A stretch of DNA of 64,000 nucleotides from a virus: the IMG/VR virus record IMGVR_UViG_3300045974_000513, positions 5,092 to 69,091 of that record. One strand, given 5' to 3'. The position numbers and the translations under genes are program-made. The notes beneath the pieces were generated by a model, which saw nothing but the letters and a program-made list of their open reading frames with translations, did not search any database and had not been told where the DNA came from. Shown piece after piece: positions 14,638-43,412 of the stretch (positions are counted from its first letter, which is position 1; every line of letters begins with the position of its first letter).

Positions 14638-16092
14638 CTATCCGGCGGTGATGTTGTTCAGGATGCCCAGCGAGACCGGGAAGTAGTGCTGGAACACCTC
14701 GTCCACGTAGCACCCGTACTCGTACTTCCGGGTGCGGAGCGGCCACTCGATCTGGTAGTACTCGCGGCGCGCCTTGATGCGGAAGACGTCGCCCACGTTG
14801 TTGAGGGCGTACGGCAGGTTCTTCACCGTGAACATCATCAGCCCGGCGGGCATGTTCGGGTGGATGTTGATCGGGATGATCGAGGAGTCCACCGGGGACT
14901 GGTACTCGGTCACCTTCCCGCCGCCGACGAGGCTGCCCTGCGCCGTCCCGGCGGTGAGGTTGAAGCGGAAGGGCGAGGTGGCCGACCCGACGCACTTCGC
15001 GGTGATGTCGTTGACCTGCTCCCGGTTCGCCCAGATGGCGTCCGGCTGGAGCTTCAGGTTGTCCCAGTACGCCCCGAGGACGTCGTTGATCTCGGTGACG
15101 CCGCCCTTGCCGTCGGCGGTGAGGGTGGACCCCAGCGAACGGTAGTACGCCGAGGAGGAGTTGAACGCGGAGTACAGGAAGCCGTCGAAGGCGTACCCGT
15201 TCTGCCGCGAGTAGTCGGCCGAGGCCAGCGCCGAGGCCAGCTGGCTGGTGGTGTTGAGGGTGGCCGACTGCACGTGGGTCCGCTTCGTGGTGATCGCCTG
15301 GAGGTGCTCGGCACCGGCCGCGCCGATGAACCACGCGTAGGCGACCGCGCCCTTCACGTCGGCGACGGCGCACGAGATCGTGAGGTTCGTGGTGGCGGTG
15401 GTGAGGTCGGCCGAGGCGGCGGACTTCTGGGCAGCGCCACCGTTGATGGTGTCGGTCGAGGAGTCGGCGTTGGTGCGGGAGATCTGCTGCACGACGCCGT
15501 TCGCCACCGACGACCGGCGGTAGCCGTCGTAGGTGAGGGCGACGCAGATCACCTTGTAGGTGGCTGCGGTGACGGAGCCGCCCGCGACGATGGAGCCGGT
15601 CGGGGTCGGGGTGGTGCCCAGCGCCACGCTGCTGTTGCCGCCGAGGAGGGTGTCCTCCTCCTTGATCATCAGCGAGTTGAGCAGGTTCTGCACGGCGCGG
15701 GCCTTGACGTCGTCGAACGACTCGGCCGCGTAGTCGGACTCGAACGTGGCCGTGTTCTCCAGGCCCAGCCCGATGTACGACGCGGTCAGGTCGGCGACGG
15801 AGTCGCTGATCACCGCGCCCCGGTTCCCCTCGGAGACGCCCGCGTGGATGTTGCTGGTGTTGATGCCGGTGATCGCCTTCCAGCGCGTCGCCGTGTCGCC
15901 CGCGTTCGACTTCACGCGGGGGGTCATGTTGCGGAGGGGCGTGAGCACCGGCACCATCAGCTTGGCCGGGGCTTCGAGGTCGTATGCGACGAGCCCGGTG
16001 CCCTGCGTGAACGACTTCGTGATCGCGTCGACTGCCTGCGGATTCGACTGCGCCGCCTTGACGAGATCCATGGTCTCATTGACGTTTGCCAT
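14638..16092 (-). CDS. Major capsid protein (484 aa)
   Basis: GLVAYDLEAPAKL.PV.TPLRN..PRV; C-terminal YYQIEWPLRTRKYEYG..VDEV...YFP..LG...NI; follows protease/scaffold; strongly biased codons. Confidence 0.88.
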   Translation of the reverse strand: MANVNETMDLVKAAQSNPQAVDAITKSFTQGTGLVAYDLEAPAKLMVPVLTPLRNMTPRVKSNAGDTATRWKAITGINTSNIHAGVSEGNRGAVISDSVADLTASYIGLGLENTATFESDYAAESFDDVKARAVQNLLNSLMIKEEDTLLGGNSSVALGTTPTPTGSIVAGGSVTAATYKVICVALTYDGYRRSSVANGVVQQISRTNADSSTDTINGGAAQKSAASADLTTATTNLTISCAVADVKGAVAYAWFIGAAGAEHLQAITTKRTHVQSATLNTTSQLASALASADYSRQNGYAFDGFLYSAFNSSSAYYRSLGSTLTADGKGGVTEINDVLGAYWDNLKLQPDAIWANREQVNDITAKCVGSATSPFRFNLTAGTAQGSLVGGGKVTEYQSPVDSSIIPINIHPNMPAGLMMFTVKNLPYALNNVGDVFRIKARREYYQIEWPLRTRKYEYGCYVDEVFQHYFPVSLGILNNITAG

Positions 16093-16151: not shown

Positions 16152-17945
16152 TCACCTGTTGACGTTCTGGAGCAGCTTCGGGTTCTGGTGAGCCTTGCGG
16201 ATCGCGTCCATCGGGCTCGCCGGGGCTTCGGGCTTCGCGGCTTCCTCGCCGGTCTGTGCGGATGCCGTGTCGAGACCCTTCTCGACCGGCAGGGCCGCAC
16301 GCAGCGCGCCCTTCGGCCTGCGCGCCAGTTCGCTGTTCGCTGCGTCGCGCTCGCTCTCCGCCGCCAGCTTCGCCTTGCGCGCGTTGGCAGCGGCGTCGGC
16401 GGCGACACTCGCCGCCTTGCGAAGGTCGTCTGCCTCCTTCACCTTCTTCGCGATCTCGGTCTTGGCGACGAGGCGCTCGCGGTCCAGCGCCTTCTTGATG
16501 CTGTCGATCTCCTCGGCCTTCCGCTGGGCGTCGGCGGCGGCGACCTCGCGGGCGCGGGTGGCCTCGGCCTTGGCGACGAGGCGGTCGCGCTCGGCGACCT
16601 TCTTGAGCCCGTCGATCTCCTCGCCCTTCCTCTGGGCCTCGGAGAGGGCGGCGTCGCGGGCGCGCGCGGCCTCGTCCCGCTCCACGCGGGCCCGGTCGGC
16701 GGCCTTCTTGATGGTCGAGATCTCCTCCAGCTTCCGCGCGTTCTCGGCGGTCGCCTCGTCGCGGGCCTTGGCGACGTCGTCGCGCTCGACCCGGGCGCGG
16801 TCCAGCGCCTTCCGAAGCGTGGCCGTCTCGGCGTTCACCTTCGCCAGGGTGACGCGCTCGGCGTCGAGCGACGCGGCGGTCGACGAGGCGAGGGCCTCGG
16901 CGGCGTCGACGGCCTTCGACAGCCGGGCGGCGCGCTGGTTGGCGGCGTCGATCTCGGAGGCCATCTTGGTGATGGTGATCTCGGCCCGCTCCGCGTTGGC
17001 CTGCACCTTCGCCAGCCGGTCGCCGGTCGCGTTCAGTTCGGCCTGCGCCTTGGTCGCGCGCTGGGCGAGGACGTCCCGCTCGGTCACCGCCTTCTCGAAC
17101 CGATCCTCGACGGCGTCCCGCTCGACCCGCATCTTCGCGGCGTCGGCGACGGCGTTGTCCCGCTCGACCGACACCTTCGACAGGCGGCTGTCGGTGATCG
17201 CCTTCTCGGCGGCCACCTTCTCGAAAGACGTCTCGGCGAAGTCGCGGGCGGCGCGGACCTTCCCCAACTCCTCGTCGGCCCGGTCGCGTTCCTGCTGCAC
17301 CTTCGCCAGCCGCTCGGACATCGAGTCCCGGTCGCCGGTCAGCTTCGCCACCGCGTGCTCGGCGTCGTCGTTGTCGCTGCGGATCCGCAGGGCGTCGGCC
17401 GAGACCGCGTCCCGCTCGGCCTGCACCTTCGCCAGCCGCTCCCGCATCCCGTCCCGCTCGGCGGAGACCTTCTCCAGCGTCTCGGAGACCTCCGCGTGGG
17501 CCCGGCGCATCTTGGTGACCTCGCCGGTCACCTCGTCGGCGCGCGACGCCACCTTCGCCAGCTTCGTCGAGGTGGTGGTGGCCTGCGCCCGGAGGTCGGC
17601 CAGCGCCTCCTCGGCGGCCCGCGCCCGCGCGGCCTCGGCGTCCCTCTCCTTGCGGAGGGCGGCCAGTTCGACGTTGGCGGCCTTCGCGAGCTTCGCGGCG
17701 CGCGCCTGGAACCTGTTCCCCTCGGCGGAGGTGCCGTCGTCGGTGGCGTCGTCGTCGCGGGTGCCCGTGGACGGGTCGGCTGCGACCTCGCCCGAGGAAC
17801 CGGCACCGCTGCCGCTTCCTGCCTCGGCCTCGCCGCCCTCGGCCGCGCACTCCGGGCACGCGCCGTCGACCAGCGTCGCCCCGCAGTCGTCGCACACCGC
17901 TGCGTCCGCCGCCTCACCCTGTGCCATCGCCTTCGGGTCTGCCAT
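16152..17945 (-). CDS. Nested in-frame scaffold protein (597 aa)
   Basis: AGGAGG-AAGCA-ATG at 17956-17943, in frame with the protease ORF, just before the Zn ribbon and coiled coil. Confidence 0.6.
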   Translation of the reverse strand: MADPKAMAQGEAADAAVCDDCGATLVDGACPECAAEGGEAEAGSGSGAGSSGEVAADPSTGTRDDDATDDGTSAEGNRFQARAAKLAKAANVELAALRKERDAEAARARAAEEALADLRAQATTTSTKLAKVASRADEVTGEVTKMRRAHAEVSETLEKVSAERDGMRERLAKVQAERDAVSADALRIRSDNDDAEHAVAKLTGDRDSMSERLAKVQQERDRADEELGKVRAARDFAETSFEKVAAEKAITDSRLSKVSVERDNAVADAAKMRVERDAVEDRFEKAVTERDVLAQRATKAQAELNATGDRLAKVQANAERAEITITKMASEIDAANQRAARLSKAVDAAEALASSTAASLDAERVTLAKVNAETATLRKALDRARVERDDVAKARDEATAENARKLEEISTIKKAADRARVERDEAARARDAALSEAQRKGEEIDGLKKVAERDRLVAKAEATRAREVAAADAQRKAEEIDSIKKALDRERLVAKTEIAKKVKEADDLRKAASVAADAAANARKAKLAAESERDAANSELARRPKGALRAALPVEKGLDTASAQTGEEAAKPEAPASPMDAIRKAHQNPKLLQNVNR

Positions 17946-20153
17946 TGCTTCCTCCTGCGGCGCGCCGGGGGCGGCCTTGGTGATGTCGATGTCCGTGTCG
18001 GCCTTCGGGCTGAAGGTCGTGAAGCCGGTCTCTTTGTGGGCGCGCGCGGATGCGTCGCGGGCGCGCCGCGTCGCCGCGTCCCGTCCGGCGTCGCCGAGGG
18101 AGGTGTCCCTCGCCGTCCGGTGCGCCTGCTCCGCGATGGCGTGCTGCTGGGCCGCGAAGTTGTGCTGCGCCGCCCCCTGCGCGTCCTTGGCCTGCGACCC
18201 CGCCCGGCGATGGCGCGTGGCCTCCGCCTTGTGGTGTTCGGCCGCCGCCCGGTGAGCGCCGTTGGAGTCGGCCCGCTCGGCGTCCTTCGCCGCGTCCGGC
18301 TGCCGCACGGACTTCTTCCTGGCCGGGGCCTTGGTCTGCCGACCGACGACCGGCTGGCCGTCCTTCCCGAACCCCTTGGTCTCGCGGTTCGGCGCGCCGC
18401 TGCCGCCGCCGTGGCTGTACTGGTTGCCCCGGAATTCGTGACCCGGGACGTCGCCCTTCAGCACCGTGTAGATGGGCTCGCCCTCGTCCGTGAAGCCGTC
18501 CAGCCGCTTCGTGAGGTCGATCTCGACGTCGGCCTTGAACGGGCGGCGCGGGCCTCGCGCGCGGGCTGCCGCCGCCGACGGCGACTCCCCGAACCGACGG
18601 GCGTCGGACGGCCCGGCCTTCTTGCCAGCCGGGGCTGTGCCCGACGAGCCATGCGCCATCGCCCGGACCATCGGGTTGGTCTCGTAGAGCGACTTCCGCT
18701 CGGATGCCCGCGCAGCCTCGGTGCCGCCGCCGCCGCTGTCGAAGGACGCCGCGCGACGGTCCGTGTACGCCTTGGCCCCGGCGCGGATGGTGGCCGTCGC
18801 CTTGTCCTGGGAGGCGGTCATCTGCCGCAGGGCCGACCGCTCGCGCGCCTCGGCCTTCGTCCCCGACTTCTTCCCGCCAGCGCCCACGTCCTCGGCGTAC
18901 TGCTTCCACTCCTCGGGCGACCGTTCCGGCTCGGCGTTGCTGGCGCTGTGCTTCGCGTCGGTGTCCCGCTGATCTCGGATGTCGCGCAGGGCCTGCTTGC
19001 CAGCGAGGCGCGTGGACTTCACGTTCAGGGCCTGGAATGGCGTCTTCCCATCGGCCACGCTGTCGGCGAGGTGCCGCCCGAACGGTGAGTCGAGTAGGTC
19101 GCGCGCGTCCTCGTCGGACCCGCCGATGACCCGCTTCACCTCTTCGCGGGCGTGCGCGTAGGCGGCGTCGGCGCTCTTGCTGCGCTCCCACTCCCACCCC
19201 TCGGCCTCGGCCTTGTCGGGGTCGTCCGGGTCGCGGCGCTCGATGTCCCGCATCCCACCGTAGAACCCGTAGGAGACGTTCTGGGCGGTGTACGGATCCT
19301 CCGCCAGCGTCGCCGCCAACTCCGGTCCCTCGTGGTGATACCCGCCCACGGTCTTGCCCGGCGTGACGCGCGTCTCGTCCTTCTTCGGCGCGATGGCCTC
19401 GGCGTCGGGCGGCGGGGCCTGGACGTGCTTGAGGTCTTCCTTCCCCTCGGCCGCGATCCGCGCCTTCTCTTCCGGCGTCCCGTGCCCGCCCTCGACCTGC
19501 TCGCGGGTCTCCCGGTCGGCCTCGTCCTCCGACCAGCGGTGATGCTCGGACTCGACTCCCGGTCCGTCGCTGGACCCGTCCCCGTACTGGTTGCCTCGGA
19601 AGGGATGGCCCGGCGCGTCCCCCTTCACCACGGGGGCGTTGACGTCGCCTTCCGCCAGCACCTCTGCGGAGACGGTGTCGTCGGTCAGGCCGTCGGCCTT
19701 GAAGAGTTGGATCCGCGCGGCCGGATTCGCCGGGGAGTCGACGAGGCTGATCTCGGTGAGGACGAGCGCCTCGATGATCTTCGCGTCGTGGACGTTGCGT
19801 CCGCCCGGCGGCACGCGCCCACCGATCGAGAAGCCCTTGTACGTCCCGGTCCGCACCTTCAGCACGGCCACCGGATCGACGATATGGGCCTCCAGATAGG
19901 TTTTCCCGTCGCCGTGAACCTCGCACGCGAGCGCGGTGCCCGCTGCGGTCGGCTGGTGCATCTCGCGGATGGCCCCGAACTTCATGTAGCCCGGGATCGC
20001 GAGGCGCATCGCGTCGGCCTTCACCACCTCGCCGTCCTTGTCGACGTCTTCGGTGGACGCGATGCCGCTTACGACGATCGTGCCATCGTCGCGTTGCTCG
20101 ATCTTGGAAAACTCCCCGAAGATCCGTTTCCCGCCGCCGCCACCCATTGCCAT
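16152..20153 (-). CDS. Prohead (maturation) protease + two motif-tagged cargo units + coiled-coil scaffold (1333 aa)
   Basis: N-terminal VSGIASTEDVDKDGE...IREMHQ...YKGFSIGG...EISLVDSPANP (HK97-type serine prohead protease); KGD motifs at 19584-19625 and 18417-18458; Zn ribbon CDDC..CPEC; long coiled coil. Confidence 0.9.
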   Translation of the reverse strand: MAMGGGGGKRIFGEFSKIEQRDDGTIVVSGIASTEDVDKDGEVVKADAMRLAIPGYMKFGAIREMHQPTAAGTALACEVHGDGKTYLEAHIVDPVAVLKVRTGTYKGFSIGGRVPPGGRNVHDAKIIEALVLTEISLVDSPANPAARIQLFKADGLTDDTVSAEVLAEGDVNAPVVKGDAPGHPFRGNQYGDGSSDGPGVESEHHRWSEDEADRETREQVEGGHGTPEEKARIAAEGKEDLKHVQAPPPDAEAIAPKKDETRVTPGKTVGGYHHEGPELAATLAEDPYTAQNVSYGFYGGMRDIERRDPDDPDKAEAEGWEWERSKSADAAYAHAREEVKRVIGGSDEDARDLLDSPFGRHLADSVADGKTPFQALNVKSTRLAGKQALRDIRDQRDTDAKHSASNAEPERSPEEWKQYAEDVGAGGKKSGTKAEARERSALRQMTASQDKATATIRAGAKAYTDRRAASFDSGGGGTEAARASERKSLYETNPMVRAMAHGSSGTAPAGKKAGPSDARRFGESPSAAAARARGPRRPFKADVEIDLTKRLDGFTDEGEPIYTVLKGDVPGHEFRGNQYSHGGGSGAPNRETKGFGKDGQPVVGRQTKAPARKKSVRQPDAAKDAERADSNGAHRAAAEHHKAEATRHRRAGSQAKDAQGAAQHNFAAQQHAIAEQAHRTARDTSLGDAGRDAATRRARDASARAHKETGFTTFSPKADTDIDITKAAPGAPQEEAMADPKAMAQGEAADAAVCDDCGATLVDGACPECAAEGGEAEAGSGSGAGSSGEVAADPSTGTRDDDATDDGTSAEGNRFQARAAKLAKAANVELAALRKERDAEAARARAAEEALADLRAQATTTSTKLAKVASRADEVTGEVTKMRRAHAEVSETLEKVSAERDGMRERLAKVQAERDAVSADALRIRSDNDDAEHAVAKLTGDRDSMSERLAKVQQERDRADEELGKVRAARDFAETSFEKVAAEKAITDSRLSKVSVERDNAVADAAKMRVERDAVEDRFEKAVTERDVLAQRATKAQAELNATGDRLAKVQANAERAEITITKMASEIDAANQRAARLSKAVDAAEALASSTAASLDAERVTLAKVNAETATLRKALDRARVERDDVAKARDEATAENARKLEEISTIKKAADRARVERDEAARARDAALSEAQRKGEEIDGLKKVAERDRLVAKAEATRAREVAAADAQRKAEEIDSIKKALDRERLVAKTEIAKKVKEADDLRKAASVAADAAANARKAKLAAESERDAANSELARRPKGALRAALPVEKGLDTASAQTGEEAAKPEAPASPMDAIRKAHQNPKLLQNVNR
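16930..17570 (-). repeat. 14-aa coiled-coil repeats of the scaffold (hydrophobic-x-K-[VMA]-x-x-E-R-D)
   Basis: LEKVSAERDGMRER / LAKVQAERDAVSAD / LAKVQQERDRADEE / LGKVRAARDFAETS / FEKVAAEKAITDSR / LSKVSVERDNAVAD / FEKAVTERDVLAQR. Confidence 0.85.
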
Positions 20154-20723: not shown

Positions 20724-23693
20724 TCAGGCCTCCTTGCCTTGCCGCTTCAAGCGGTCGGTTCCAGCCTTCACCATGAGTTTGTAGTACGCCACCCAGGACG
20801 GTTTGGCGACGTCCTCGACCCTCTTGCCCGCGCGCTCCAGCGCCCGGATCTCCGCGAAGGTCTCGTGCAGCGCCTGCTCCGTGGTGGCCTCCCGTGCTTT
20901 GTACGCGTTCCACCACCGCGTGCTGTACGGGGTGACCCCGTCCTCTTCCGCCAGCGCATCGATGTCCCCCGCCTTGCCGAGGGCTTCCTGCTGCGCGTGC
21001 AGCGGAAACTCGCGCCTCCCACGGGCCGTCAGCGTCCCGTCGGCGCGCATGATCGCGTGCTCCTGCGCGTACTCGAACCGGGCGTCGCCCTCGATCCCCT
21101 TCGCCTCGGCCTCGCGGATGGCGTCGCGGTACTCCGGGGCGACGGACTCCTGAATCCGATCCCCCTCCTCGCCCATCTCGGCCGTCGCTGCGGTGAACTC
21201 CATGTGCCCGATCTCGTGCGCGACCACCGTCCGCGCGTAGTCGTCCCCGATCGCGCCCCACTCGCGGACGTAGATCTTGATGTGCCCCGACTCATTGAAC
21301 GACGCGGATCCGGCGGCGTTGAATTCCTGGCCCATGAGGCTCACGTGGTATGTCTCGTCGGTCAACTCGACCTCGCCGGTGTACCCGAACTCCTTAGTCA
21401 GCGCCTCGACCTTCGACTTCGTCGACTTCCACTCGTCGGTCTCCCGCACCGCTTCGCGCCGGGCCGACTCCTCCTCCAGCTTGGCATCGACGCGGTCGAC
21501 CGCCTTGAAGGCGATCTCGCTGGCGTCTACCGCCCATTGCCGAATGGTCTCGTAGTCGGCGTTTCGGGCCGTTGTCTCGCGCTGCTGATCGGCCAGCGAC
21601 TCCTCGGATGCCCCGGTCCCCATGTCCTCCAGCCACCGCTGCGACTTCTCGGCGGCCCGTGCCGCCCATTGCGCCCGCTCGTGCGCGGCACCAGCCGCAA
21701 GGCACTCTCGGGCGGCCTCCGCGTCCCCATGATCCCTGGCCCAATGGGCAAGGGATGCGAAGTACCCCACCGCGCGCTGGTGCTCGTCGGAGTTAGAGGC
21801 CCCCAGCGCGAAGATCCTGGCCTCTTCCCTCTCCTGCGCCTCGCCGTCGAAGTCCTGGCCGCCGCCGGATGCGCCGTCGGTGTACTGGTTCCCGCGAAAC
21901 GGGTGGCCATCGAAATCGCCCTTCCTCACCGTGGCGGCGAGGCGCTGCACCGTCCGGTACGCCTTCCGCCACTCGGGCGGCGCGGCCTTCGCCAGCGGGT
22001 CGCCCCCCATCACGATCCGGTGGATCTCGGAAAGCGTCTCGGAGATGGCGCTGTGTACCACCGTCGACCGGCCGCGCCAGTAGGTGACGTCGTCCCAGAA
22101 CGCCTTCGCGTAGGGGCTGATCGTCCCGCCGCCCGGGGCCAGCTTCTCCCAGCCCCGCTCCAGCTTCGACATCGCCACCGGGTCGGCCTCCCAGGCAGCG
22201 GAGTACTGCGCGTGGGCGATCTCGTGGGCGATCACGCCGCGCACGTTCCAGTCGGGGTACTTCCGGTGCATCTCGTCGGTCGCGCGCGGGTAGATGGTGA
22301 TCCGACCGTCCTTCTTCGCGTTGAACACGCCCGCGACGGAGTTGGGCAGTCCGTCGAACGTGATCGTCTCGGGCGGATCGTCCACGACGTCGATGCGGCT
22401 GGATGGGAACCCGGTCGCGGCGCAGACCTCTTCGACGGCTGCGCGCGCTGCGGCCACACCCTCGGTCCATTGGTTTCCCCGGAAGGCGTGCCCAGGCAGA
22501 TCGCCCTTGGTGACGCGCACGGTCCGCATCCCCGCGACCTTCACCACCTCGCGGTAGATGCGCTGCCACGCCGGGGAGCAGACGTCCTTGAGCTTCTTCC
22601 CGGTCCGCACCATCCCCCGGATCTCGGCGAACGTCTCGTTCACCGGGTCGAAGATCGGATCCCGCATGGCCCCGCCGCGCGCCTTGGCCTTCTCGTAGTG
22701 CTTCCACCACGACGCGGCGTACTCCGACACGGCAGCGCCCTCCTTCGCCAGCGACTCGCGCGTCCCGAAGCGTTCCAGGGAGGAGACGACCCGCTGCCCG
22801 CCGCCCCGGTGAAACTCGACGTGGGCGATCTCGTGGGCGACGACCTCCCTCACCTCGTCGGTAGGCATCCCGCGCATCTGCCGCGCGTGCAGCGTGATCT
22901 CCTCCCGCGTGGAACTGGCGGTGCCGACCGCCTTCGCCCGCTGGCCCGCCACCGTGAACTCGTGCTCGTCCAGCGTGACGATCACCTTGCCCTTGAAGCC
23001 GAACTCCTTCACGGCGGCATCGACCTTGGCCTGCGCGCTGGCCTTCGTGTTCCGTTCCCGCGTCTCCTTGGCCTTCTGGGCCCACCGGATGGCGGCCTCG
23101 GTGGCGGTGACGGCGGCCCTGCGCGTCGCGTCCGCCGCCTCGTGCGCCGCGACCGTCTCGGGCTTCACCTCGTCGGGGTCCGCCATCGACGCGGTCTCGT
23201 AGTCGGCGCTCGCCGTGGCAGCGGTCTCCTGCAACTCGGCCGCGCGCTCGTAGGCCGCCTTCCGCTTGGGGTCCGTGAGCCGTTTGGCCTCGGACCGCAG
23301 CATGACCGCGCCGTCCTTGAAGTCGGAGTACGTCTCCGGGTTCAGGGCGCGCTCGGTCATCACCTCGCGGACGTACTTCTCCTCCTCCTCGATGTCGGAG
23401 TCGGACTTGTCGCCCTCCCCCCACGCGCCGCCTGCACCCTCAGTCCATTGGTTCCCTCTGAACGGGTGCCCCGGGAGATCCCCCTTGGTGAGAGCCACGC
23501 CCAGGATGTCCGCCACCGGCACCGGCCTCCCCTTCACCGGGACCGCCGACAGGCCGATGGCGTTCCACGCGAGCAACTCGGCGGTCGCCTTGTCCTCACC
23601 GCGCGCCTTCGCCGCGTCGCGTTCGCGCCGCCACACCGCGTTGTGTCGAGGGGGCAGCGCCAGCAGGTACTCGTCCAGCGGAGCCCTATCCAT
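20724..23693 (-). CDS. Cargo polyprotein: ChaB-like N-terminus + three motif-tagged zincin metallopeptidases (989 aa)
   Basis: HEIAH, HEIAH and HEIGH, each followed by [ST]-x-Y-x-x-x-[WF]W and ET[FL][AS]EI; three KGD motifs; N-terminal LPPRHNAVW...AELLAWNAI. Confidence 0.85.
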   Translation of the reverse strand: MDRAPLDEYLLALPPRHNAVWRRERDAAKARGEDKATAELLAWNAIGLSAVPVKGRPVPVADILGVALTKGDLPGHPFRGNQWTEGAGGAWGEGDKSDSDIEEEEKYVREVMTERALNPETYSDFKDGAVMLRSEAKRLTDPKRKAAYERAAELQETAATASADYETASMADPDEVKPETVAAHEAADATRRAAVTATEAAIRWAQKAKETRERNTKASAQAKVDAAVKEFGFKGKVIVTLDEHEFTVAGQRAKAVGTASSTREEITLHARQMRGMPTDEVREVVAHEIAHVEFHRGGGQRVVSSLERFGTRESLAKEGAAVSEYAASWWKHYEKAKARGGAMRDPIFDPVNETFAEIRGMVRTGKKLKDVCSPAWQRIYREVVKVAGMRTVRVTKGDLPGHAFRGNQWTEGVAAARAAVEEVCAATGFPSSRIDVVDDPPETITFDGLPNSVAGVFNAKKDGRITIYPRATDEMHRKYPDWNVRGVIAHEIAHAQYSAAWEADPVAMSKLERGWEKLAPGGGTISPYAKAFWDDVTYWRGRSTVVHSAISETLSEIHRIVMGGDPLAKAAPPEWRKAYRTVQRLAATVRKGDFDGHPFRGNQYTDGASGGGQDFDGEAQEREEARIFALGASNSDEHQRAVGYFASLAHWARDHGDAEAARECLAAGAAHERAQWAARAAEKSQRWLEDMGTGASEESLADQQRETTARNADYETIRQWAVDASEIAFKAVDRVDAKLEEESARREAVRETDEWKSTKSKVEALTKEFGYTGEVELTDETYHVSLMGQEFNAAGSASFNESGHIKIYVREWGAIGDDYARTVVAHEIGHMEFTAATAEMGEEGDRIQESVAPEYRDAIREAEAKGIEGDARFEYAQEHAIMRADGTLTARGRREFPLHAQQEALGKAGDIDALAEEDGVTPYSTRWWNAYKAREATTEQALHETFAEIRALERAGKRVEDVAKPSWVAYYKLMVKAGTDRLKRQGKEA

Positions 23694-33123: not shown

Positions 33124-35475
33124 CTACTCCTTCTTGAAATGGACGGTGGCCCTTCCGCCGCCGTCCGTTGGGTTGTTGGGTGCGTCGAGGTCGCCCTTGT
33201 TCAGCGTGATCGGCTTGCCCTGCACCATGAAGGTCGCGGGCTTGCCCATGTGATCGAGGACGGAGGCGGGCGACCACTCACCGTTCCTCGCCTCGGCCCC
33301 ACCGAAGTACCGGAGGTCGACGGGGATGGTCTTCAGGCCCGCGCGCCGCGCCGCACGCACGCGGTGGTTGCCCTCCGCGATCTTCGTGGTCCCGTCCGCC
33401 TCGACCCAGACCATGATCGGGTTCTTCGCGTCGTACCCCTTCTCGCGGATCGAGGCCTCCAGCGCGGCGAGGCGCACCTCTTCGTCCGGGCTGGGCTTCG
33501 CCAGCATGACGTGCTCGTCGTTGTGGCCGGGCAGCAGGATCACCTTGCTGATGGGGAGGTCGACGCGGTCGAAGGCGGCGGTCGCGGTCGACGGATTCGC
33601 CCGGACCCAGGACTGCCCGCGAGGCCCGCCCTCGTGGTCGAGGCTGCCGGGATCGACCGGGTTGTCGCGCCAGAACCCGGCGGCGGAGAGGGCGTCCTCG
33701 TTGAGGCGCAACTCCTTCTCGCCGGTCATCGACGCGCCACCCTCGGTGTACCGATCACCATCGGGCGACGTCCATTGGTTCCCCCGGAAGGGATGGCCCA
33801 GGAAGTCGCCCTTCTTGACCGGGATCGGGACCGCCTTCCAGTCGTGGCGGAAGGTGACCAGCATCTTGTCGGGGTCGCGGTGCTGGTGCGTCGCGGTGGC
33901 CTCGTGGGCTTCCACGATCCACTCGGGCTTGATGTCCTCCTCCAGCGTCCGGTGAAGCTCTGGGTCCAACTCGGAGTCGCTGTCCAGGCGCGCGGCGACG
34001 TCGCCCGGGAGGCGGACGGTCAGCACGATCGGCACCTCCGCGTCGTTCACGTCCGCAGACCGCGCCCAGGAGTAGGCCTCGTCCTTGTCGGTCGCAACGT
34101 AGACCGCCCTAGCGCGCCGCCCCTGCGTGACCTCGGGGAAGTTGCGACGGCTCTTCGCGCCAGCGACGGTGATCCCCTCGGTGGCGATGCTGGGGAGGTG
34201 CCGCATGAAGGTGCCGTGGTAGACGGTGACCCCTTCCGCGTGCTGGTTGCCTCTGAACGGATGCCCGGGGAGATCGCCCTTGTGCATCGCCGGGTCGCGC
34301 ACCACGCTGATGTCCTCGGCCGCGATCTTGTCGGCCGTGAACATCGCCTCGCCCCACGGCATGTCCCGCGTCCCGACATCGTCCACCGCGAAGTCCTCCC
34401 GCGCCCACGCCTCCGGGTCGATGCGGAGGACAACGACGGGCGGCGGGTCATCGTGCTGGTCGGCTGCGTGAGCCTCGACGCGCTGCCGCCAGAACTCGAC
34501 GCCCGCCCGGTCGGTCGTGAAGACGCGCCCCTTGCTGTGGGACTCGTACACTCCGCCGCGCCCAGCCGTGGAGGCTGCACCGGGGACGAGCCCATGCGCC
34601 GCGATCTCCTCCAGCCGGTCGGCCGTCGTGACGTGGTAGACGGCCGGGTCGCTGTCCTCGTCCTCGGGGAGATCGACGCGCGGCAGGCCATCGTCCTCGC
34701 CCCAGGTGCGCGGCCCCTCGTCCCCCTCGCCTTCGCCGTCCTCCGCCTCGCCTTCACCATCGGTCCATTGGTTGCCCCGGAACTCGTGGCCGGGGAGATC
34801 GCCCTTGCGGATCCGCCTGGGCAGCGGCGGCCCGTGCCAGCGCCGGTACAGGGCCATCACGCCGGGGCCGTGCCTCTTGCCGGACAGGTGCTGCGCGAAC
34901 ACCTCTGCGACGAATTCGCCCGGGGCCGTCGCGGCGTACCCACTCACCCTCCGCGCCACCTTCTCCTCGGCGGGCTTGAACTCCTCCGCCTCCTCAACCC
35001 GGAACCGCTGCGCGTTGGTCATGCTGCTGACGTGCGCGGCGTGGCCCAACTCGTGAAACACGGTCTCGGCGTCCACGGAGTTGGGATTGTCGGAGAAGAT
35101 CAGCGTCGGGAGGTGCCCCCCGGCATCCCAGGAGGACTCCATCTCGCCTGCGGAGCCGCGCTGCATCCGGCCCCCGATGCGGACCTTGACCGGCATGGGG
35201 ACGCCCATCGCGCGCGCCCGGTTCAGCGCCTCCTCGACGACCCCAGCCACGATCTTCGCGTCCGCCTGCTCCTCGCGCCCACCCTTCGTGCGGATCACGA
35301 TCGGGACAGCGGGGCCGTCGCCCTTGCCCTCGGACCATTGGTTCCCGCGAAAGGGGTGCCCGTCCACGTCCCCCTTCCCGATCACCTCGACCGGAGTCTG
35401 CTTCGACTCGTGCAGCCACGCCTCGTCCACGACGGGCGACTGCTTCGACTCGACGAGGAAGGCCTCGCGGTTCAC
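33124..35475 (-). CDS. Cargo polyprotein: zincin + two Tpt1/DarT-like ARTs + ParB/Srx-like domain (783 aa)
   Basis: HELGH...SGYA...EFVAEVF; YHVT...IAAHGL; YHGT...SIATEGI..VYVAT; SIREKGYD..PI.V..IAEGNHRV. Four KGD motifs. Start reassigned to GTG 35475 (GTGA overlap). Confidence 0.85.
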   Translation of the reverse strand: MNREAFLVESKQSPVVDEAWLHESKQTPVEVIGKGDVDGHPFRGNQWSEGKGDGPAVPIVIRTKGGREEQADAKIVAGVVEEALNRARAMGVPMPVKVRIGGRMQRGSAGEMESSWDAGGHLPTLIFSDNPNSVDAETVFHELGHAAHVSSMTNAQRFRVEEAEEFKPAEEKVARRVSGYAATAPGEFVAEVFAQHLSGKRHGPGVMALYRRWHGPPLPRRIRKGDLPGHEFRGNQWTDGEGEAEDGEGEGDEGPRTWGEDDGLPRVDLPEDEDSDPAVYHVTTADRLEEIAAHGLVPGAASTAGRGGVYESHSKGRVFTTDRAGVEFWRQRVEAHAADQHDDPPPVVVLRIDPEAWAREDFAVDDVGTRDMPWGEAMFTADKIAAEDISVVRDPAMHKGDLPGHPFRGNQHAEGVTVYHGTFMRHLPSIATEGITVAGAKSRRNFPEVTQGRRARAVYVATDKDEAYSWARSADVNDAEVPIVLTVRLPGDVAARLDSDSELDPELHRTLEEDIKPEWIVEAHEATATHQHRDPDKMLVTFRHDWKAVPIPVKKGDFLGHPFRGNQWTSPDGDRYTEGGASMTGEKELRLNEDALSAAGFWRDNPVDPGSLDHEGGPRGQSWVRANPSTATAAFDRVDLPISKVILLPGHNDEHVMLAKPSPDEEVRLAALEASIREKGYDAKNPIMVWVEADGTTKIAEGNHRVRAARRAGLKTIPVDLRYFGGAEARNGEWSPASVLDHMGKPATFMVQGKPITLNKGDLDAPNNPTDGGGRATVHFKKE

Positions 35476-38400
35476 TTCTTCCCCTTCCGCTTCGGGGCCA
35501 CGATCCCCTCGGCCCGCATCACGAACGGCGAGAAGCCCCCGTTGCGCCCGTCGGTCAGCACGCCGTAGTACTTCGTCTCCGACATCGACTTGTAGACGTC
35601 CTTCGTCGAGATGCGGATCCCGAAGTACCCAGCGCCCGGCACCCACCCCAGCGTCGGGTCGACGACCTCGCCCGTCGCCTTGTCGACCACCCAGGCGTGG
35701 TGCACCGGGAAGGGCACGCGCGCCGAGACCATGTAACCCTCGGTGTACTCGTACTTCGACGGGTCATCCATCATCAGCTTGGTCGCGTTCATGAAGCACT
35801 CCTTCGGCGCGCCCAGCTTGATGTTCGGTGCCCGCGTCGGCACGTCCATCGCCTTCCCGGCCTTCAGCACGTACTTCGCCAGCGCGCCCACGGAGGCCAT
35901 CGGCGCGATGGCGTCGCGCACCTCGTCGGCCGTCATTGGCTGCCCGTCGAGGTCGGCGTCGCTGCGGACCCCGTCCTTCTGCTTGAGACCCTTCAGCCAC
36001 GCCTGCTCCATGCTCGACATCTGCTTGAAGTCGTCGGGCAGCGGCACAGGCTTGCCGGTCTTGGCCGCCTCGTTGCGGTCGGGGCGAAGCGACGGCGGGT
36101 CTTCACCTGAGTCGGGATCCCACCCGGACGCTGCGTCGGCCTCGGCCATCGCCTGGATCTGCGCCCCCAGCTTCGACCCCGGAAGCGCCTCGATCGACGC
36201 GATCTGCGCCGCCTCGGTCCTCGCCTCGGCCCGGTCCTTCTCGGTGAGGAAGCCCCCGGTCTTCGCGCGGGCCTCCACCAGTCGGTCCGCCATCGCCTCC
36301 ATCGTGGTCTGGAACTTCTCGCCGCCCTCCTTGCCCCCACCGCTGGTGTACTGGTTTCCTCTGAAGGGGTGACCGGGCGCGTCCCCCTTGCGGACCTTGG
36401 CCTTGGCCCACGGTCCTCTCAGCGTCAGCGCATCCCGGTGTCGGACCACGACGTCCCGGTCGGCGTCCGTAAACTCCTTCCCGCGCCGGGCGTCCATGCG
36501 GTCCTGCTCTTCGCGGATGGCCTCGCGGCCCCACGGCAGCGCCTCGGACGCGAAGTCGCCGCGTCGCCCCTGGCCGACGTACTCGCTGGCCTCCTCGCGC
36601 GTCTTGAACGCGCCGCTGTGCGTGACGAACCCGTCCTCCCAGTCGTCCTCGGTCCAGTCGGGCACCGAGAGGATGTCGTGGGACGCGCCGGTAGCGACGA
36701 TCTTGCCGGTGCTCTTCTGGCGGAACCCGGCAGCGCGGAACGGCGCGCCCTTCCCGTCCCACCGATCGCCTCCGCTTGCACCGTCGGTGTGCTGATTCCC
36801 TCGGAAGGGATGGCCCTCTGCGTCCCCCTTGCCGACCCAGCCCTTCGCCACCCAGTCGATCGAGCGCCGCACCGCCTTCACGATCGCGCCCTCGTTGCCG
36901 CGCAGCGCCTTCTCGATGGCGTCCCGGTCGACCCGGACGTTGACGACGTACCCGTCCTCCGCGAACCCGTAGACCTCGCCGCCCTTGTTGGTCGCGTTGG
37001 TCAGCGTCATCCGCAGCAGCACGCGCCCGTCCTTCGACGAGAAGTCCGTCTGCCCCTTCTCGATCAGCGCCTTCGGGTCCGCGCCGTAGGTCTTCGCCAT
37101 CTTCTCGAACTGCTTCTGGTTCAGGTCGAGCACCTTGCCCAACTCCTCGTTGGCGCGGTACCTCGTCGCGTGGACCGTGAGGTGGTCTTCCTCCCACGAG
37201 AAGCCGTCCATCTTCGCGCCCACCATCCCCAGCGTCATCTTGGGCAGCATCCCCGTGATCTCGCCCGCCGCCTTCGTGAAGCGCGCCTTCACCTCGGACG
37301 AGAGGTCGCCGCGCGCACCGATCTGCTCGCGGATCGTCTTCACGCACGTCGCCCGGTCGATCTTCTTCTGGGCGAACTGCGTCAGCGTCTTGATGGACTC
37401 GGGCACCGACCGAAGCAGCGGCGGCGTCTTCTCCTTGGCGAACAGCGCCATGTTGTCGGCCACCGCGAACGCCGTGCCCACCGGCTCGTTGGCGAAGTCG
37501 ATGCCCGCCCAGTCGTGGCCTGCGATCAGGGCCCGGACCTGCTGCGCCCCGTGCGCGCCGAAGGCCTCCTTCACGTCGGGGATCAGCGCATCCTCCGCGT
37601 ACTGCGTGCTCCACCGTGGGTGGTCGCCGTCGAGGAACATCCGCGAGGGTGGCGTGAGGTAGCCCGTGTCGTGGTAGACGGCTGCGAGGGTGACGGCCAC
37701 CCGGTTCTCGGGCGTGTTCTGGTTGCCCGGCAGCACCTTGAGGATGTCCTTCGCCATCTCCGCGTCGCCGTTGAGATGGTGGATGCCGTGGTCGCCCAGC
37801 GTGCGCGACTGCGCCTCGAACTCCTGGGCGATGAGGTGATCGGAGGCTGCCATCGTGAGGCGAGCCGCGACCTCCGGGTGGACGCCCGCCTGGATCAACT
37901 CGTCGTGCAGCCCGCCCACCATCGTCGCAGCGGTCTCGATCGACTTCTCGTGCATCTGGTCGGCGTACTGCATCACGCGCGCGATCGAGTCGGCCCGGCC
38001 ATCGCCCGTGGACGGCCGCTCCCGGTCGCCCAGCAACTCCTCCATCCGCGCAGGCACGGTCGTCTCGGGGTCCGCCAGCGTGTCGCGGTCCCGCACCGAC
38101 ATGCGCGCCCACTTGTCCTTCACCGTGCCGACGTTGTTGTCCTTGGAGTCGGCCGCCAGCGCCGCGTCCGCCTTCTCGCGCCAGTAGTCGAGGGACATCG
38201 TGCCGCGCCGGTCCTCGGCCTCGGCCGTGGTGTCGCGGCTGGTGCCAGCGTCGTCCTCGTCGCCGCCACCGCCGGTCCCATCGGTCCATTGGTTCCCTCT
38301 GAAGGGATGCCCGTCGCTGTCGCCCTTGCCGATCCGGCTGGCCTTCGGGTGATCCTTCAGCCGCGCCGCGACGATCTGGTCCGCCTCGGCCTTCGACCCC

Positions 38401-41400
38401 ACGTAGTCGGCGGAGTGCGTCTCGTTCCCCTCGGCGTCCTTCCGCTGCACCACCCAGTTGCGCGAGTGGCGGTCGTACCAGCGCTCGATGGTCGCAACCG
38501 GCACGTCCATCATCGCGGGGTGGCGATCGAAGGCGTCGTCCACCGGATCAGCGGGCTGCGCCTTCGACGCGAGGTGCGCCTTGTACTGCTGGACCGCCTC
38601 CTCCTTGTCGAACGTGGAGGTCTCGAACCGCTTCGCGCTCGGCCCGTCCGCCGGGTCTTGGAACGCCCAGACCTTGCCCGCCGACTCCTCGTCCACGTCC
38701 TCGGCGTTGTCGGGATCCTCCTCCTTGATGGCGAGGTGCGGCTTGCCATCGATGTTGGCGACCGCGTCGCACTCTTGGTAGAGGAAGTCGGAATTCGACA
38801 TCGAGACGCCGCGAATCGCGCCCTCCTTCTTGGGCATCTTCACTCGCGCCTCGTAGAGCAGGAACGCGTCGTACCCGAAGTCGAAGTGGTCGATGTTGTC
38901 GCGCTTCGCCTCGGGCATCGCGGCCAGCGCGTCGGCCATCCGCTCGCGGTCGGCGCGCGAACGCTCGTGCGGCCTGACCTTGTTGTCGGGCAGGGAAGCG
39001 CCGCCTGCTGCGCCGCCCCCCGTGCCATCGGAGAACTGGTTTCCACGGAAAGGGTGCCCCGCGAAGTCGCCCTTCTTCACCCCGGCGCGCGCGTAGGCGT
39101 CCAGGGTGCCGATCAGGAAGGCGTCCTTCCCGAACCGCATCCCGTCCCACCCCTTCGCCTTCAGCCGGGCGATGGCGCGGTCGTTCCCCTGGATGAACAC
39201 CTCCGCCGCCAGATCGTCGAAGTCGGTGCGCGACATCGACGCTGGGTCGACCCCGGTGGCGTACCCGACGATGGCCTTCGCCCCCGGCGCGTTCCAGTCC
39301 CCCAGGTCGAGCAGGCGCGGCTGGCGATGCACACCGTAGGCCTTGGTGTCGCCCCATTGCCCTGCGCTCGCCCGGTCCGTGCTGACGTACACGCCCTGCG
39401 GGAAGGAGGAGGAGACCTGTTCGTTGCCTCCCGCCGATCCCCGGTAGACGACGTCCGGCAGGCTGCCCCCACCGTCGGTGTACTGATTGCCTCGGAAGGG
39501 GTGTCCATCGACGTCCCCCTTCGCCACCTTCTCGGCATCGAACCCGACGCCGCCCTCGTCCGCTGCCTGCGGGTCGTCGACGAGGATGGGGATCACCGCG
39601 CACCGGCAGTTCGGATGGGCAGGCGGCCCCTCGATCTGGTCGCCGTCGTAGTCGAAGAGGCTGCCCAGCGGCACCTCCTCGCCGTCCATCTCGTCGCACT
39701 TCGGGCAGCAGTCCGCGCCGGTCGCCCAGCGCACGCCCTCGACCACGCCTGAGTCCTCCCAGGCGATGAGGTTGCCCGCGACGTTGGCGATGGCGAGTTC
39801 GGTGCGCGCGATCATCTCGGCGCGCGGCCCGTGGAACAGCGGGTTCGTGTAGAGGGCCTCCCGAAGCTGGGCGACGGTCGCCTCGTCCTCGATGGCGGCC
39901 TCGACCATGCGCTGCACACCGTCCTGCATCGTGTTCGTGATGCCGGTGATCATGTTGCCCGCGTGCAGGGTGGCCCACTCCGCCGCGCGCTGATGCACGA
40001 GGTCGATCGCCACGCCGACGGAGAGGACGCCCTGCGACCGCAGTTGCTTCAGCGCCGCCTCGGCAGCGAGCTTCACGGTGTCGCCCAGGTCGCCCTGGAT
40101 GGCTGCGATCAGGGAGTCGAGGTCTTCCTGCGTGACGACCGTCCGCAGCCGATCGATGTCGGCAGCGGTGATGGTGATGCCCTCGGCCTTCTCGACCTCG
40201 ACGCCCAACTCCTGGGCGAGGCGCGCGAGGTACTCGGCGAAGAACACGTTGAGGCGGCCAGCGATGACCTCCTCCAACGCGGTCAGTCGGGGTACCGCAT
40301 GACCCGGTCTTTTCCGGGGACCGCGCGTCCCCCGACCTCCCTTCAGCACGTCGAGGTCGAGGTCGGCCTTGTAGCTGGCCTTCGACCGGGACGCCTCTCG
40401 GGCCGCTTGGCTGTGCGCGCGGGCCGACGGGTGCTTCTGGCGCAGCGCCTCGGCAGCGAGCCTGTGCTTGGCCTCGATGGTGCGGTGATGCGTCGCGGCC
40501 TGCTCGTCGTTCCCTCGCTCGGCGCGTTCGGCCTGCCCGCGCGAGTACTCTGCGGCGGCCTCGTGCTGGTCGGGCTTCCTCGCGCTTCGGGCGGCCTTGT
40601 ACTGGCGCATCTCCTCGGCGTAGTCGCGCGGGCCCTCGGGCGCGGGAGCGCTTCCACCGTCGGAGTACTGGTTGCCTCGGAATTCGTGGCCGGGGATGTC
40701 ACCCTTGGCGAGCCAGAGGAGGCGGTCCTTGGAACGGAAGACGACGTCACCGTTCTCCAGCGTGGTGTAGTCCCCCTCGTGCTGTAGCTTGGCGAACGGG
40801 TTGGGCTTCTTCGCGCCGAACGGCGGAGCACCACCAGCGGGCTTCCCCCCGAACGGACTGCCCCCCTTGGCCCCGAACGGCGGCGCACCTGTTGGCTTTC
40901 CGAACGGCGGCGCGCCGGGCTTGCCCCCCCCGAACGGATTCGGCTTCGCACCGAACGGAGGCGGCGGCCCACCGGGGCCTCCCTGGGGGGGTGAAGGCGG
41001 CCCGGACGATCCAGGCACTCCCGGTGGACCGCCAAAGGGATTCATCGGCGGAGGCGGCGGGTCGTCGAGCCCCTCGATCGGCTCCCACCCGTAGGCGTCG
41101 CGCGCCTCGTTCTTCGTGGCGATGCCTGCGGCGGTGAGGGCGCACCAGACGTCCGACTTGATCTTCGGGTCGCTGATCTCCTCGTCCTCGTAGGCGAACT
41201 CCATCTCGGGCGCGTCGAACGCGGTCGCGAGGATGGTGTCCATCACGTCCTTCCACCACAGCTTCAGCGGTTCGAGGCCCTCGGACAGCGCCTGCTTCTC
41301 GGCTGTCTCGGCGGTGGCGCGGTTCATCTGCGCAACCAGCGCCTGGGGGGAGAGGCTGAACGCGTAGCAGATGAGCCGCGCGAGCCACTCGTCGAACATG

Positions 41401-43412: not shown

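Follow-up and report, generated by a model that had tools for sequence, protein, structure and literature searches.

A lysine-glycine junction repeated in the polyvalent head proteins of an uncultivated phage is a candidate site for its prohead protease

Since the description of giant polyvalent proteins, it has been a question whether they are injected whole, are cut by their own zincins, or are cut by the head protease. A stretch of DNA from an uncultivated phage bears on this question. The stretch (the window, 64,000 nucleotides) covers positions 5092-69091 of IMG/VR record IMGVR_UViG_3300045974_000513, which is linear, 69,091 bases long, and an estimated ~87% complete. Six large open reading frames (ORFs) on the minus strand of the window contain copies of a junction in which a tripeptide ending in lysine is followed by a conserved motif, GDxxGHPFRGNQ (the tag). 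A preliminary description of this DNA had proposed that the phage's prohead protease cuts between the lysine and the glycine. From comparisons of sequences across phages, we consider this to be the best-supported reading, and we lean modestly towards it.

A regular-expression search found exactly 25 copies of G[DE]xxGHxFRGNQ in the six ORFs. The next residue is Y, W, F or H, and the motif is followed by [ST]xG and a glycine-rich stretch (Table 1). Lysine lies directly before the motif in all 25 copies, and V, I, L, F or M lies two residues before the lysine in 24 of them; we write this pattern as phi-x-K. Only TAK, in the ORF at 26036-31825 (residue 1238), departs from it. These counts agree with the preliminary description, whose list of tripeptides was also correct, and the cluster of IEKA, IVKA and VAKG that it reported before the motif at 36789 is present in the translation, along with VGKG. 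One motif lies ahead of each enzymatic unit, and the N-terminal portal and protease domains each have one after them.

Selection at the protein level maintains the tag. Over 14 codons (K plus GD..Q[YW]), the DNA of the 25 copies is 75% identical. At the third codon positions of the ten invariant residues, however, the pair identity is just 0.557, versus 0.666 expected from the codon usage of the phage, and six different Arg codons are used among the copies. Because the third-position identity is below the expectation from codon usage, recent duplication, gene conversion, and a recombination signal at the DNA level are excluded as the source of the similarity.

The tag also seems to lie outside of folded domains. 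In an AlphaFold 2 (AF2) model of residues 1-215 of the protease-scaffold protein (17-row alignment), the predicted local distance difference test (pLDDT) is below 50 from residue 144 on, including the tag. In a model of the 792-residue ORF (41-row alignment), the ADP-ribosyltransferase (ART) domains are confident and the three tags are in segments with pLDDT below 50 (24-37/39-55, 256-280, and 449-523). The motif is thus predicted to be a linear element in disordered linkers for four of the four tags modelled. We also considered whether the tripeptide might be the last strand of the upstream domain, but in the AF2 model the ART domains end about 12 residues earlier.

The window encodes a suitable candidate protease. 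When we compared the model of the protease domain to known structures with Foldseek, the top match was gp21 of phage T4 (5jbl; E = 1.7e-5, probability 1.00, template modeling score 0.60), followed by the proteases of human cytomegalovirus and Kaposi's sarcoma-associated herpesvirus. All 17 of the aligned homologues share H66 and S109 (in GFSxGG), which are the putative catalytic residues. PHROG protease families match the protein at E values of 3.4e-13 to 1.7e-07; the score for PF04586 is 19.1 bits, which is below the gathering cut-off of 21 (E = 0.0015). The gene lies between those for the portal and the major capsid protein. The predicted fold, the His and Ser residues, and the place of the gene all fit an assemblin-fold prohead serine protease of the HK97/S78 clan.

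Candidate sites of the same form are found in the protease and the capsid protein. (We use a slash to mark a proposed cut, and P1 and P3 for the first and third positions before it.) The invariant K152 of the protease-scaffold protein is eight residues past the end of the protease fold and inside a disordered segment (144-207) of the AF2 model, and LFK/A at this place may be a self-cleavage site. The preliminary description had also noted the pattern at the N terminus of the capsid protein. In the window, its frequency there is at the chance level, but both of the sites are strongly conserved. Among 120 capsid homologues, the ITK/S site has a hydrophobic residue at position 24 in 118, K (117) or R (3) at position 26, and mostly A (83) or S (32) at position 27; the LVK/A site has K (99) or R (16) at position 12, and V, M, L or I at position 11 in 116. 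The conserved capsid sites and K152 would fit with a short capsid propeptide and with self-release of the protease. A prediction of the complex between residues 1-165 of the protease and a 35-residue tag peptide, which was run without controls, had a score of 0.01 and gave no answer.

The tag is widespread. A degenerate DNA pattern for GHPFRGNQ matched at least 145 stretches of IMG/VR contigs, as well as the genomes of 38 species from the Verrucomicrobiota, Bacteroidota, Actinomycetota, Pseudomonadota, Bacillota, Myxococcota, Acidobacteriota, Planctomycetota, and other groups. With a 35-position profile built from 150 instances, 1760 cluster representatives among 1.84 billion had E values of 1e-3 or less, including 371 at 1e-10 or less and 56 at 1e-30 or less. 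In contrast, when we compared a 34-residue tag stretch to 50,697 records of cultured phages by tblastn, there was one match, Xanthomonas phage Rb1; this reflects the low sensitivity of tblastn and not the rarity of the tag.

We examined the 150 best-scoring representative proteins from the profile search and scanned 75 of them with Pfam. Twelve of the 75 contain MuF and two end in Peptidase_S78_2 (XkdF-type). The other domains include ARTs, NUDIX, ParB-like, 2H, topoisomerase IB, zeta-toxin-like, Acb1, InPase, DUF3626 and DUF7178, and no conjugation domains were found among the 75. The tag-rich proteins correspond to the polyvalent proteins of phage type that Iyer et al. 2017 described. In the window, several unrelated enzymatic domains are combined in one chain, and the context is a head module with portal and terminase.

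The residue before GD varies between phages. Other viral contigs provided 136 non-redundant contexts: V, I, L, F or M lies two residues before the pre-GD residue in 96 of them, and 77 have K as the pre-GD residue. Among the 514 contexts of the 150 representatives, K precedes GD in 330, of which 296 have the hydrophobic residue two before; the background frequencies in such proteins are 22% for V, I, L, F or M and 6% for K. The other contexts have phi-x-L (73), phi-E-F (30), E (11, 9 of them with a hydrophobic residue at that place) or D (9) before GD, and A, S, R, V and H form further classes. Classes are mixed within only 36 of the 150 proteins. A junction tripeptide that is uniform within a phage and varied between phages, while the 13 residues after it are nearly constant, behaves as polyprotein sites do.

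If this is so, the pre-GD residue should follow the protease. We considered all 35 tag-bearing viral records of at least 30 kb (some scans covered 36 records, G000-G035). PF14550 (XkdF-type S78_2) was above its curated cut-off in 16 of the 35, PF04586 had a match with E ≤ 0.01 in 3, and phrog_21715 had a match in 2. An S78 or S78_2 protease was found in 15 of the 18 records with K before GD (K-class), versus 3 of the 17 other records (p = 1.5e-4, Fisher's exact test). One of these three exceptions has ILR, another has the K shifted by one residue (LYK/EAA), and the third, a record of the F class, matches at 14 bits.

The records with D before GD have tags that resemble that of Rb1. The 1221-residue "internal head protein" of Rb1 contains one tag, ALD/GDFSGHPFRGNQH, and is encoded near DarA-N-like and DarB-like genes. 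The annotated prohead protease of Rb1 has homologues in exactly 3 of the 36 records (G007, G012 and G018; E = 5e-39 to 6.5e-44), all of which are D-class, and it is homologous to Pro of phage P1 (30.5% identity, E = 1e-9). The maturation sites of capsid proteins can be compared to these classes. In gp5 of HK97, F-N-K is at positions 101-103 and Ser is at 104, which we take to be the first residue of the mature protein. According to passages of PMC9024508, the capsid protein of phage P1 (gp23) starts with SVAAEM after the loss of 120 residues, as determined by Edman degradation. When we placed this start in the P1 sequence, the site was A-M-L-E/S-V-A-A, with an acidic residue at P1 and a hydrophobic residue at P3. 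A basic residue at P1 thus appears to covary with HK97- or XkdF-type proteases, and an acidic residue with Pro-type proteases, at capsid sites and at tag junctions alike.

As for other families of head proteases, CLP_protease and Peptidase_S49 had no matches with E ≤ 0.01 in the 36 records (there was one S49 match of 12 bits). Peptidase_S77 was also absent from all 36, but its control matched nowhere, so this blank is uninformative. Neither ClpP nor S49 was found in the 36 records, and XkdF-type proteases were found in 16 of 35. Possibly only phages whose proteases have the assemblin fold carry the tag.

Tags immediately behind a prohead protease domain recur in several unrelated phages. A homologue of the protease-scaffold protein that is 51% identical (P0005) has IEK/GDLPGHPFRGNQ at the same place. 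Two others, P0002 and P0004, keep V-D-K-G and I-D-K-G at this place, although the motif downstream is replaced by [QH]PRDxxG[RK][FW] and a Gly-rich stretch. Among 40 same-frame segments (up to 400 residues) that precede tags, we found 4 with S78_2 (plus 1 weak match), 1 with S78, 3 with MuF, and 1 with Portal_Mu. In every protease-tag fusion that we examined, at least 220 residues follow the tag, and these are a ParB-like nuclease, a zeta-like kinase, or scaffold-like helices. Proteases can also be at the other end of a chain: P0086 comprises Acb1, a tag, a unit, a tag, a unit, and an XkdF-type protease, and P0084 also ends in an S78_2 protease. When we used tblastn to search for an ORF with protease, tag, and ParB, no match from a cultured phage spanned the tag.

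The replacement seems to be part of a second junction motif, approximately [FW][DE]x[SD][QH]PRDxxG[RK][FW] followed by a Ser/Gly-rich stretch, which we saw in P0002, P0003 and P0004 and in 20 further contexts. It sometimes shares a chain with the GHPFRGNQ tag and is absent from the window. Counted by eye, about 15 of 22 real contexts have phi-x-K within a few residues ahead of this motif.

Many tags are near the start of the protein. The first tag is within 40 residues of the N terminus in 66 of the 150 proteins, and many of these leaders of 6-40 residues end in phi-x-K. Some leaders are conserved: in L109, an IMG/VR contig of 1458 bases, three small tandem genes share M(I/L)(I/V)INRFG...V.K and then the tag, and MTNPFS..L.P.W.....ILK precedes the tag in at least 7 other contigs. 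These leaders may be removable propeptides. Three stand-alone genes, which encode ART-like, Tpt1-like and GNAT proteins, start with M-GD..GHPFRGNQ and have no tripeptide upstream. Removal of the Met before Gly would leave these proteins with the same N terminus as the proposed cut would produce.

A different element is often found right behind the tag: a His/Ala-rich helical stretch with spaced His residues (such as AxxHxxAAxxH). In the window, such stretches are at 17900-18400 (after tag 2), 20727-21900, 26039-26900, 28517-28990 and 39900-40650. They also occur in unrelated phages (L149, L016, L071, and Rb1, L146), as if they were a separate unit.

In the reading that we favor, each motif would be a two-part junction module within a disordered linker. 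The phi-x-K would be positions P3 to P1 of a site for the phage's own assemblin-fold protease, which in this phage is fused to the scaffold. The protease would cut at K/G inside the procapsid. The portal and the protease-scaffold protein would thereby be freed of the cargo chain, and about 25 units would emerge from the five polyvalent proteins, among them zincins, ARTs, MuF, and a ParB-like nuclease. At the start of every released unit would be the 13-residue tag GDxxGHPFRGNQ[YWFH], with a spacer rich in glycine behind it. Besides marking the cut, the tag would serve as a conserved linear docking element that the cargo requires even where no cut is needed, and its most likely roles would be loading into the procapsid or exit through the portal and tail.

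We found no description of the junction motif or of its P1 classes in the searchable literature, including that on polyvalent, MuF, or prohead-protease proteins. The best-supported interpretation is that the junction represents a form of prohead-protease processing of packaged proteins. The cut that was first proposed draws support from the link between P1 class and protease family, from the matching sites, from the fusions, and from the M-GD starts; a generalized code and the scaffold repeats do not add to it. Two further suggestions of the preliminary description, that the tag is an ejection signal and that the fusion keeps toxic enzymes fused, are speculation.

Regarding the generalized code, the preliminary description had proposed that the head proteins share the pattern, and this is only partly borne out. 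We masked the 25 motif sites and used composition-preserving shuffles to compute how often phi-x-K[GAS] is expected. The pattern was not enriched in the capsid protein (2 versus 1.3 expected) or in the portal ORF (11 versus 8.3), and the four polyvalent ORFs and the tail proteins had no excess over shuffles either, so the comparison of head to tail does not bear out a shared code outside of the coiled coil. The scaffold does have an excess, both of phi-x-K (Table 1) and of phi-x-K[GAS] (11 versus 2.4 expected). However, this excess lies in tandem 14-residue coiled-coil repeats, which are not independent of each other and whose periodicity confounds the count. The residue after the K in these repeats is mostly V, A or M. 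The scaffold homologues have the same phi-x-K-phi-x-x-E-R-D repeats, and the DNA includes a 108-base tandem repeat at 16455-16674.

Several findings weigh against cleavage by the prohead protease. First, the covariation is imperfect. Three K-class records show no protease (these are 24%, 33% and 69% complete), the F-class record G006 has only a 14-bit match to S78, and among the 35 records the L and F classes could not be assigned to any protease family. The sample is also small, its records are not phylogenetically independent, and the D-class records are related P1-like phages. Second, to our knowledge, the specificity of S78_2 proteases has never been measured, and we found no proteomics for Rb1, the only cultured match that bears the tag. 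Third, the 13 near-invariant residues on the prime side go far beyond what known prohead proteases need, and the three M-GD genes manage without phi-x-K. Fourth, hydrophobic residues recur at every fifth position of the element (-7, -2, +3 and +8, counted from the G of GHPF), so the supposed P3 residue may be structural to the tag. Finally, phi-x-K[GAS] is neither in excess nor depleted in the cargo ORFs and the capsid protein relative to shuffles, and the enrichment of HExxH in tag-rich proteins (see below) leaves room for a role of zincins.

The 13 conserved residues and the M-GD genes together imply that the tag has a function of its own as a cargo address. The conserved residues past the cut are probably a cargo tag for loading or exit, and the tripeptide may have a double use, as part of the tag and for the protease. 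A bolder version, which we hold only tentatively, is that the tag is a near-universal cargo address of tailed phages with assemblin-fold prohead proteases. It would dock on the scaffold-borne protease, bring any enzyme that carries it into the procapsid, and place the preceding K, E/D or F/L (depending on the protease family) in the active site, so that one 20-residue module would both package and release.

Alternatively, the whole 20-residue element might be a docking motif that is never cut and serves as an address for packaging or ejection or as a handle for a partner. The polyproteins would then remain whole or be cut at other places, and the lineage-specific pre-GD residue would reflect co-evolution with a lineage-specific receptor, possibly the protease or scaffold in a binding and not an enzymatic role. 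The stand-alone M-GD genes, the near-invariance of the tag across phages of many phyla, and the first tags within 40 residues of the N terminus would all fit, and the hydrophobic positions at every fifth residue suggest one compact binding face. There are also precedents for targeting: work by Duda and colleagues from 2013 is said to describe a capsid-targeting tail on the HK97 protease, and DarB of phage P1 has a capsid localisation signal (PMC9024508, in the passages on DarB). However, cargo in one chain with the portal or with the protease-scaffold protein needs no further address and yet is tagged at every unit, and enzymes fused to the portal could not exit the capsid uncut. Docking would also not account for the match between the pre-GD residue and the P1 specificity of the protease in two families, nor for the survival of phi-x-K-G where the downstream motif is replaced. 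We consider docking without cleavage to be unlikely.

It seems quite improbable that the prohead protease is uninvolved and that the junctions are cut by zincin-like units within the polyvalent proteins or, once the cargo has been injected, by a protease of the host. In favor of zincins, the window encodes six HExxH units, HExxH occurs in 38 of the 150 tag-rich proteins versus 7.7 expected by chance, and zincin processing was proposed by Iyer et al. 2017 (PMC5512222, main text). But HExxH is missing from the other 112 proteins, and from 37 of the 61 proteins with at least four tags. Also, zincins would not predict that K or D covaries with the family of the serine protease, and zincin-free fusions of protease, tag, and cargo exist.

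It is very improbable that the tag cuts itself without a protease, for instance by cyclisation of the Asn at GN/Q with help from the conserved His. Asn-dependent self-cleavage occurs in other viral and secretion proteins, and G, H, N and Q are invariant in what is a glycine-rich, turn-like motif. The tag is predicted to be disordered, though, with no fold to provide catalytic geometry; the stand-alone M-GD proteins would lose their tag; and the lineage-specific pre-GD residue would be unexplained. Finally, the repeats could be DNA-level cassette boundaries that allow effector modules to be shuffled and that play no part in the protein, as the very different domains behind the same tag in different phages might suggest, but the chance of this is close to negligible given that synonymous sites are saturated while the amino acids are invariant.

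Cleavage of the junctions by the prohead protease would resemble several known systems in part. According to the sections of PMC10052503 on T4, phiKZ and SPN3US, the proteases gp21, gp175 and gp245 cut many packaged and ejected proteins, the portal, and themselves at a short consensus that has a fixed P1 residue, and the propeptides are short (20-24 residues) and N-terminal. The likeness is in the assemblin-fold prohead protease, as the model of the window's protease matches T4 gp21. But those phages have one gene per protein and a targeting propeptide that is removed, while the window has up to seven units per chain and a conserved element past the proposed cut, which would remain on the product; also, the P1 residue is Lys instead of their Glu. 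When the junctions are held against T4-type substrate sites, what the sequences show is uniformity in the window (25 of 25 have K) and, across the viral records, covariation of the pre-GD residue with the protease family. HK97 is similar in having an S78-type protease between the portal and capsid genes and in the form of its site (F-N-K/S, or phi-x-K/small), and its delta domain has further phi-x-K[AS] at positions 7, 50 and 85. Unlike the window, HK97 has no cargo proteins or tag, and its scaffold is fused to the capsid protein instead of the protease; the window's protease is below the Pfam threshold for S78. Picornavirus-type polyproteins (3C sites) also have a uniform junction within each genome, with P1 set by their own protease, and the P0084 and P0086 chains even end in a protease. 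The differences are that these are DNA phages, that the products are cargo and not replication proteins, and that the long prime-side tag has no counterpart. Encapsulins take up enzymes into a shell of the HK97 fold, and these enzymes bear a short conserved peptide and a flexible Gly-rich spacer. The encapsulin peptides, however, are usually at the C terminus and have no associated protease, and the likeness is not based on sequence similarity.

Among phages with packaged enzymes, polyvalent proteins are multi-domain proteins of the head module with ART-PolyVal, zincin, and ParB-like domains and MuF or portal, and are sometimes fused to an assemblin-like peptidase that is presumed to process them (PMC5512222). 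Its main text, which proposes zincin processing, has no occurrence of "GNQ", and we met no junction motif there. Rb1 and the Dar system of phage P1 share capsid-packaged anti-restriction cargo and a Pro-type protease with the proposed system, but phage P1 lacks the tag, and its DarB uses an N-terminal localisation signal of its own (PMC9024508, same passages). MuF polymorphic toxins, as outlined by Jamet et al. 2017 (PMC5576092), have an N-terminal MuF and then one C-terminal toxin domain. The layout in the window is different: MuF is internal (1166-1274 of 2646), with the portal ahead of it and five tagged units behind. Lastly, a preprint on phi24B reports that a 2811-residue polyvalent protein is abundant in virions, and we met no data on its processing there.

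The G+C content of the window is about 70%, and the order of genes on the minus strand is terminase, portal-MuF-cargo, cargo ORFs, protease-scaffold, capsid, tape measure, and tail protein. The units that are recognizable with Pfam are at least three zincin/SprT-like domains, two ART-PolyVal domains, ParB_N and MuF; HD and YunG-like matches were weak. When we searched for the 792-residue ORF in cultured phages with tblastn, only the ART domains had matches. We infer that the cargo is delivered into the host with the DNA only from the MuF and portal fusions.

A few unusual stretches are also present. Upstream of the Pfam portal match, the portal ORF has a low-complexity insert of about 300 residues (residues ~190-500, window 41900-42850) that is rich in Gly, Pro, Ala and Glu and has KPRLGPDGKPLPP repeats; a second Pro/Gly-rich stretch is downstream of the portal domain. 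The first 513 residues of the 1929-residue ORF (30287-31825) are rich in Ala, Thr and Ser, with STSAPRAQATSTAR repeats; the DNA is 75% G+C, and positions 31095-31270 hold a tandem repeat of 66 bases. The gene may in truth begin further downstream. Two small ORFs rich in Ala, Gly and Thr lie amid the cargo genes on the minus strand (31828-32652, 274 residues, and 32656-33120, 154 residues). Neither of them contains a tag, and only the smaller one matches a PHROG, weakly (phrog_644, unknown function, 2.6e-05). The tail protein (711-9290, minus strand, 2859 residues) has a run of GTLAAGVVYAG-like repeats near residues 1990-2130, and its PHROG matches are weak.

Table 1. Junctions, candidate cleavage sites, and genes in the window (aa, amino acids; a slash marks the proposed cut; tags are numbered ORF by ORF)
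Feature	Position	Strand	Evidence and remarks
Major capsid protein, 484 aa	14638..16092	-	phrog_13692 3.2e-121; 3310 homologues
Capsid ITK(/S), residues 24-26, candidate maturation site	16015..16023	-	conserved in homologues
Capsid LVK(/A), residues 10-12, second candidate site	16057..16065	-	conserved in homologues
Protease-scaffold fusion ORF, 1333 aa	16152..20153	-	phrog_21715 4.9e-55 and head maturation protease PHROGs; 2 tags, at residues 178, 567
Scaffold coiled coil, ~14-residue repeats rich in phi-x-K	16155..17756	-	phi-x-K 27 versus 7.8 expected
LFK(/A), residues 150-152, candidate self-cleavage site	19698..19706	-	K152 invariant in 17/17 homologues
Prohead protease domain, residues 8-143, predicted assemblin fold	19725..20132	-	AF2 pLDDT >90 over 8-143
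Polyvalent ORF, 989 aa, three zincin-like units	20724..23693	-	SprT-like 5.2e-09, Peptidase_M48 5e-06, Zincin_1; HEIAH twice, HEIGH once; 3 tags, at residues 71, 397, 592
Polyvalent ORF, 792 aa	23686..26064	-	two ART-PolyVal domains, PF18760 6.5e-14 and 4.2e-16; 3 tags
Polyvalent ORF, 1929 aa, N-terminal Ala/Thr/Ser repeats	26036..31825	-	HEVNH and HEVGH units; weak YunG-like match; 7 tags, at residues 514, 678, 943, 1104, 1238, 1457, 1618
Polyvalent ORF, up to 840 aa, start uncertain	33124..35646	-	ParB_N 7e-06 in last unit; one HELGH zincin signature; weak Tpt1-like matches; 4 tags, at residues 92, 282, 457, 613
Portal-MuF-polyvalent ORF, 2646 aa	35472..43412	-	Phage_portal 560-773, Phage_Mu_F 1166-1274; phrog_2662 portal 3.1e-59; 6 tags, at residues 904, 1299, 1448, 1697, 2196, 2343
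Large terminase	43737-45272	-	Terminase_6N/6C, same gene string as portal and MuF (Pfam)
Tag 1: VVK/GDAPGHPFRGNQY	19584..19631	-	regex scan
Tag 2: VLK/GDVPGHEFRGNQY	18417..18464	-	regex scan
Tag 3: LTK/GDLPGHPFRGNQW	23445..23492	-	regex scan
Tag 4: VTK/GDLPGHAFRGNQW	22467..22514	-	regex scan
Tag 5: VRK/GDFDGHPFRGNQY	21882..21929	-	regex scan
Tag 6: LKK/GDFDGHPFRGNQY	25921..25968	-	regex scan
Tag 7: IHK/GDLEGHPFRGNQY	25240..25287	-	regex scan
Tag 8: LAK/GDFEGHPFRGNQY	24673..24720	-	regex scan
Tag 9: LGK/GDLPGHEFRGNQY	30248..30295	-	regex scan
Tag 10: IKK/GDFEGHPFRGNQF	29756..29803	-	regex scan
Tag 11: FRK/GDFEGHPFRGNQF	28961..29008	-	regex scan
Tag 12: FTK/GDAVGHPFRGNQY	28478..28525	-	regex scan
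Tag 13: TAK/GDLPGHPFRGNQY (only exception)	28076..28123	-	regex scan
Tag 14: VRK/GDLDGHPFRGNQW	27419..27466	-	regex scan
Tag 15: VEK/GDFDGHPFRGNQY	26936..26983	-	regex scan
Tag 16: IGK/GDVDGHPFRGNQW	35335..35382	-	regex scan
Tag 17: IRK/GDLPGHEFRGNQW	34765..34812	-	regex scan
Tag 18: MHK/GDLPGHPFRGNQH	34240..34287	-	regex scan
Tag 19: VKK/GDFLGHPFRGNQW	33772..33819	-	regex scan
Tag 20: LAK/GDIPGHEFRGNQY, first junction past portal domain	40665..40712	-	regex scan
Tag 21: VAK/GDVDGHPFRGNQY, directly past MuF	39480..39527	-	regex scan, Pfam
Tag 22: VKK/GDFAGHPFRGNQF	39033..39080	-	regex scan
Tag 23: IGK/GDSDGHPFRGNQW	38286..38333	-	regex scan
Tag 24: VGK/GDAEGHPFRGNQH, with IEKA, IVKA, VAKG upstream	36789..36836	-	regex scan, translation
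Tag 25: VRK/GDAPGHPFRGNQY	36348..36395	-	regex scan

A junction that can be read from the sequence would make the processing of polyvalent proteins directly testable. If the junctions are cut by the prohead protease, then the cargo units in metagenomic phage genomes could be delimited automatically, and the specificity of uncharacterised prohead proteases could be predicted (Lys for the XkdF-type, acidic for the Pro-type). The tag would also be a compact natural tool for studying how phage heads are loaded and how their contents are released. And if the more tentative idea is correct, that one module both packages and releases, the module chains would be genuine polyproteins of DNA phages, with a "P1 code" that can be read from the genome.

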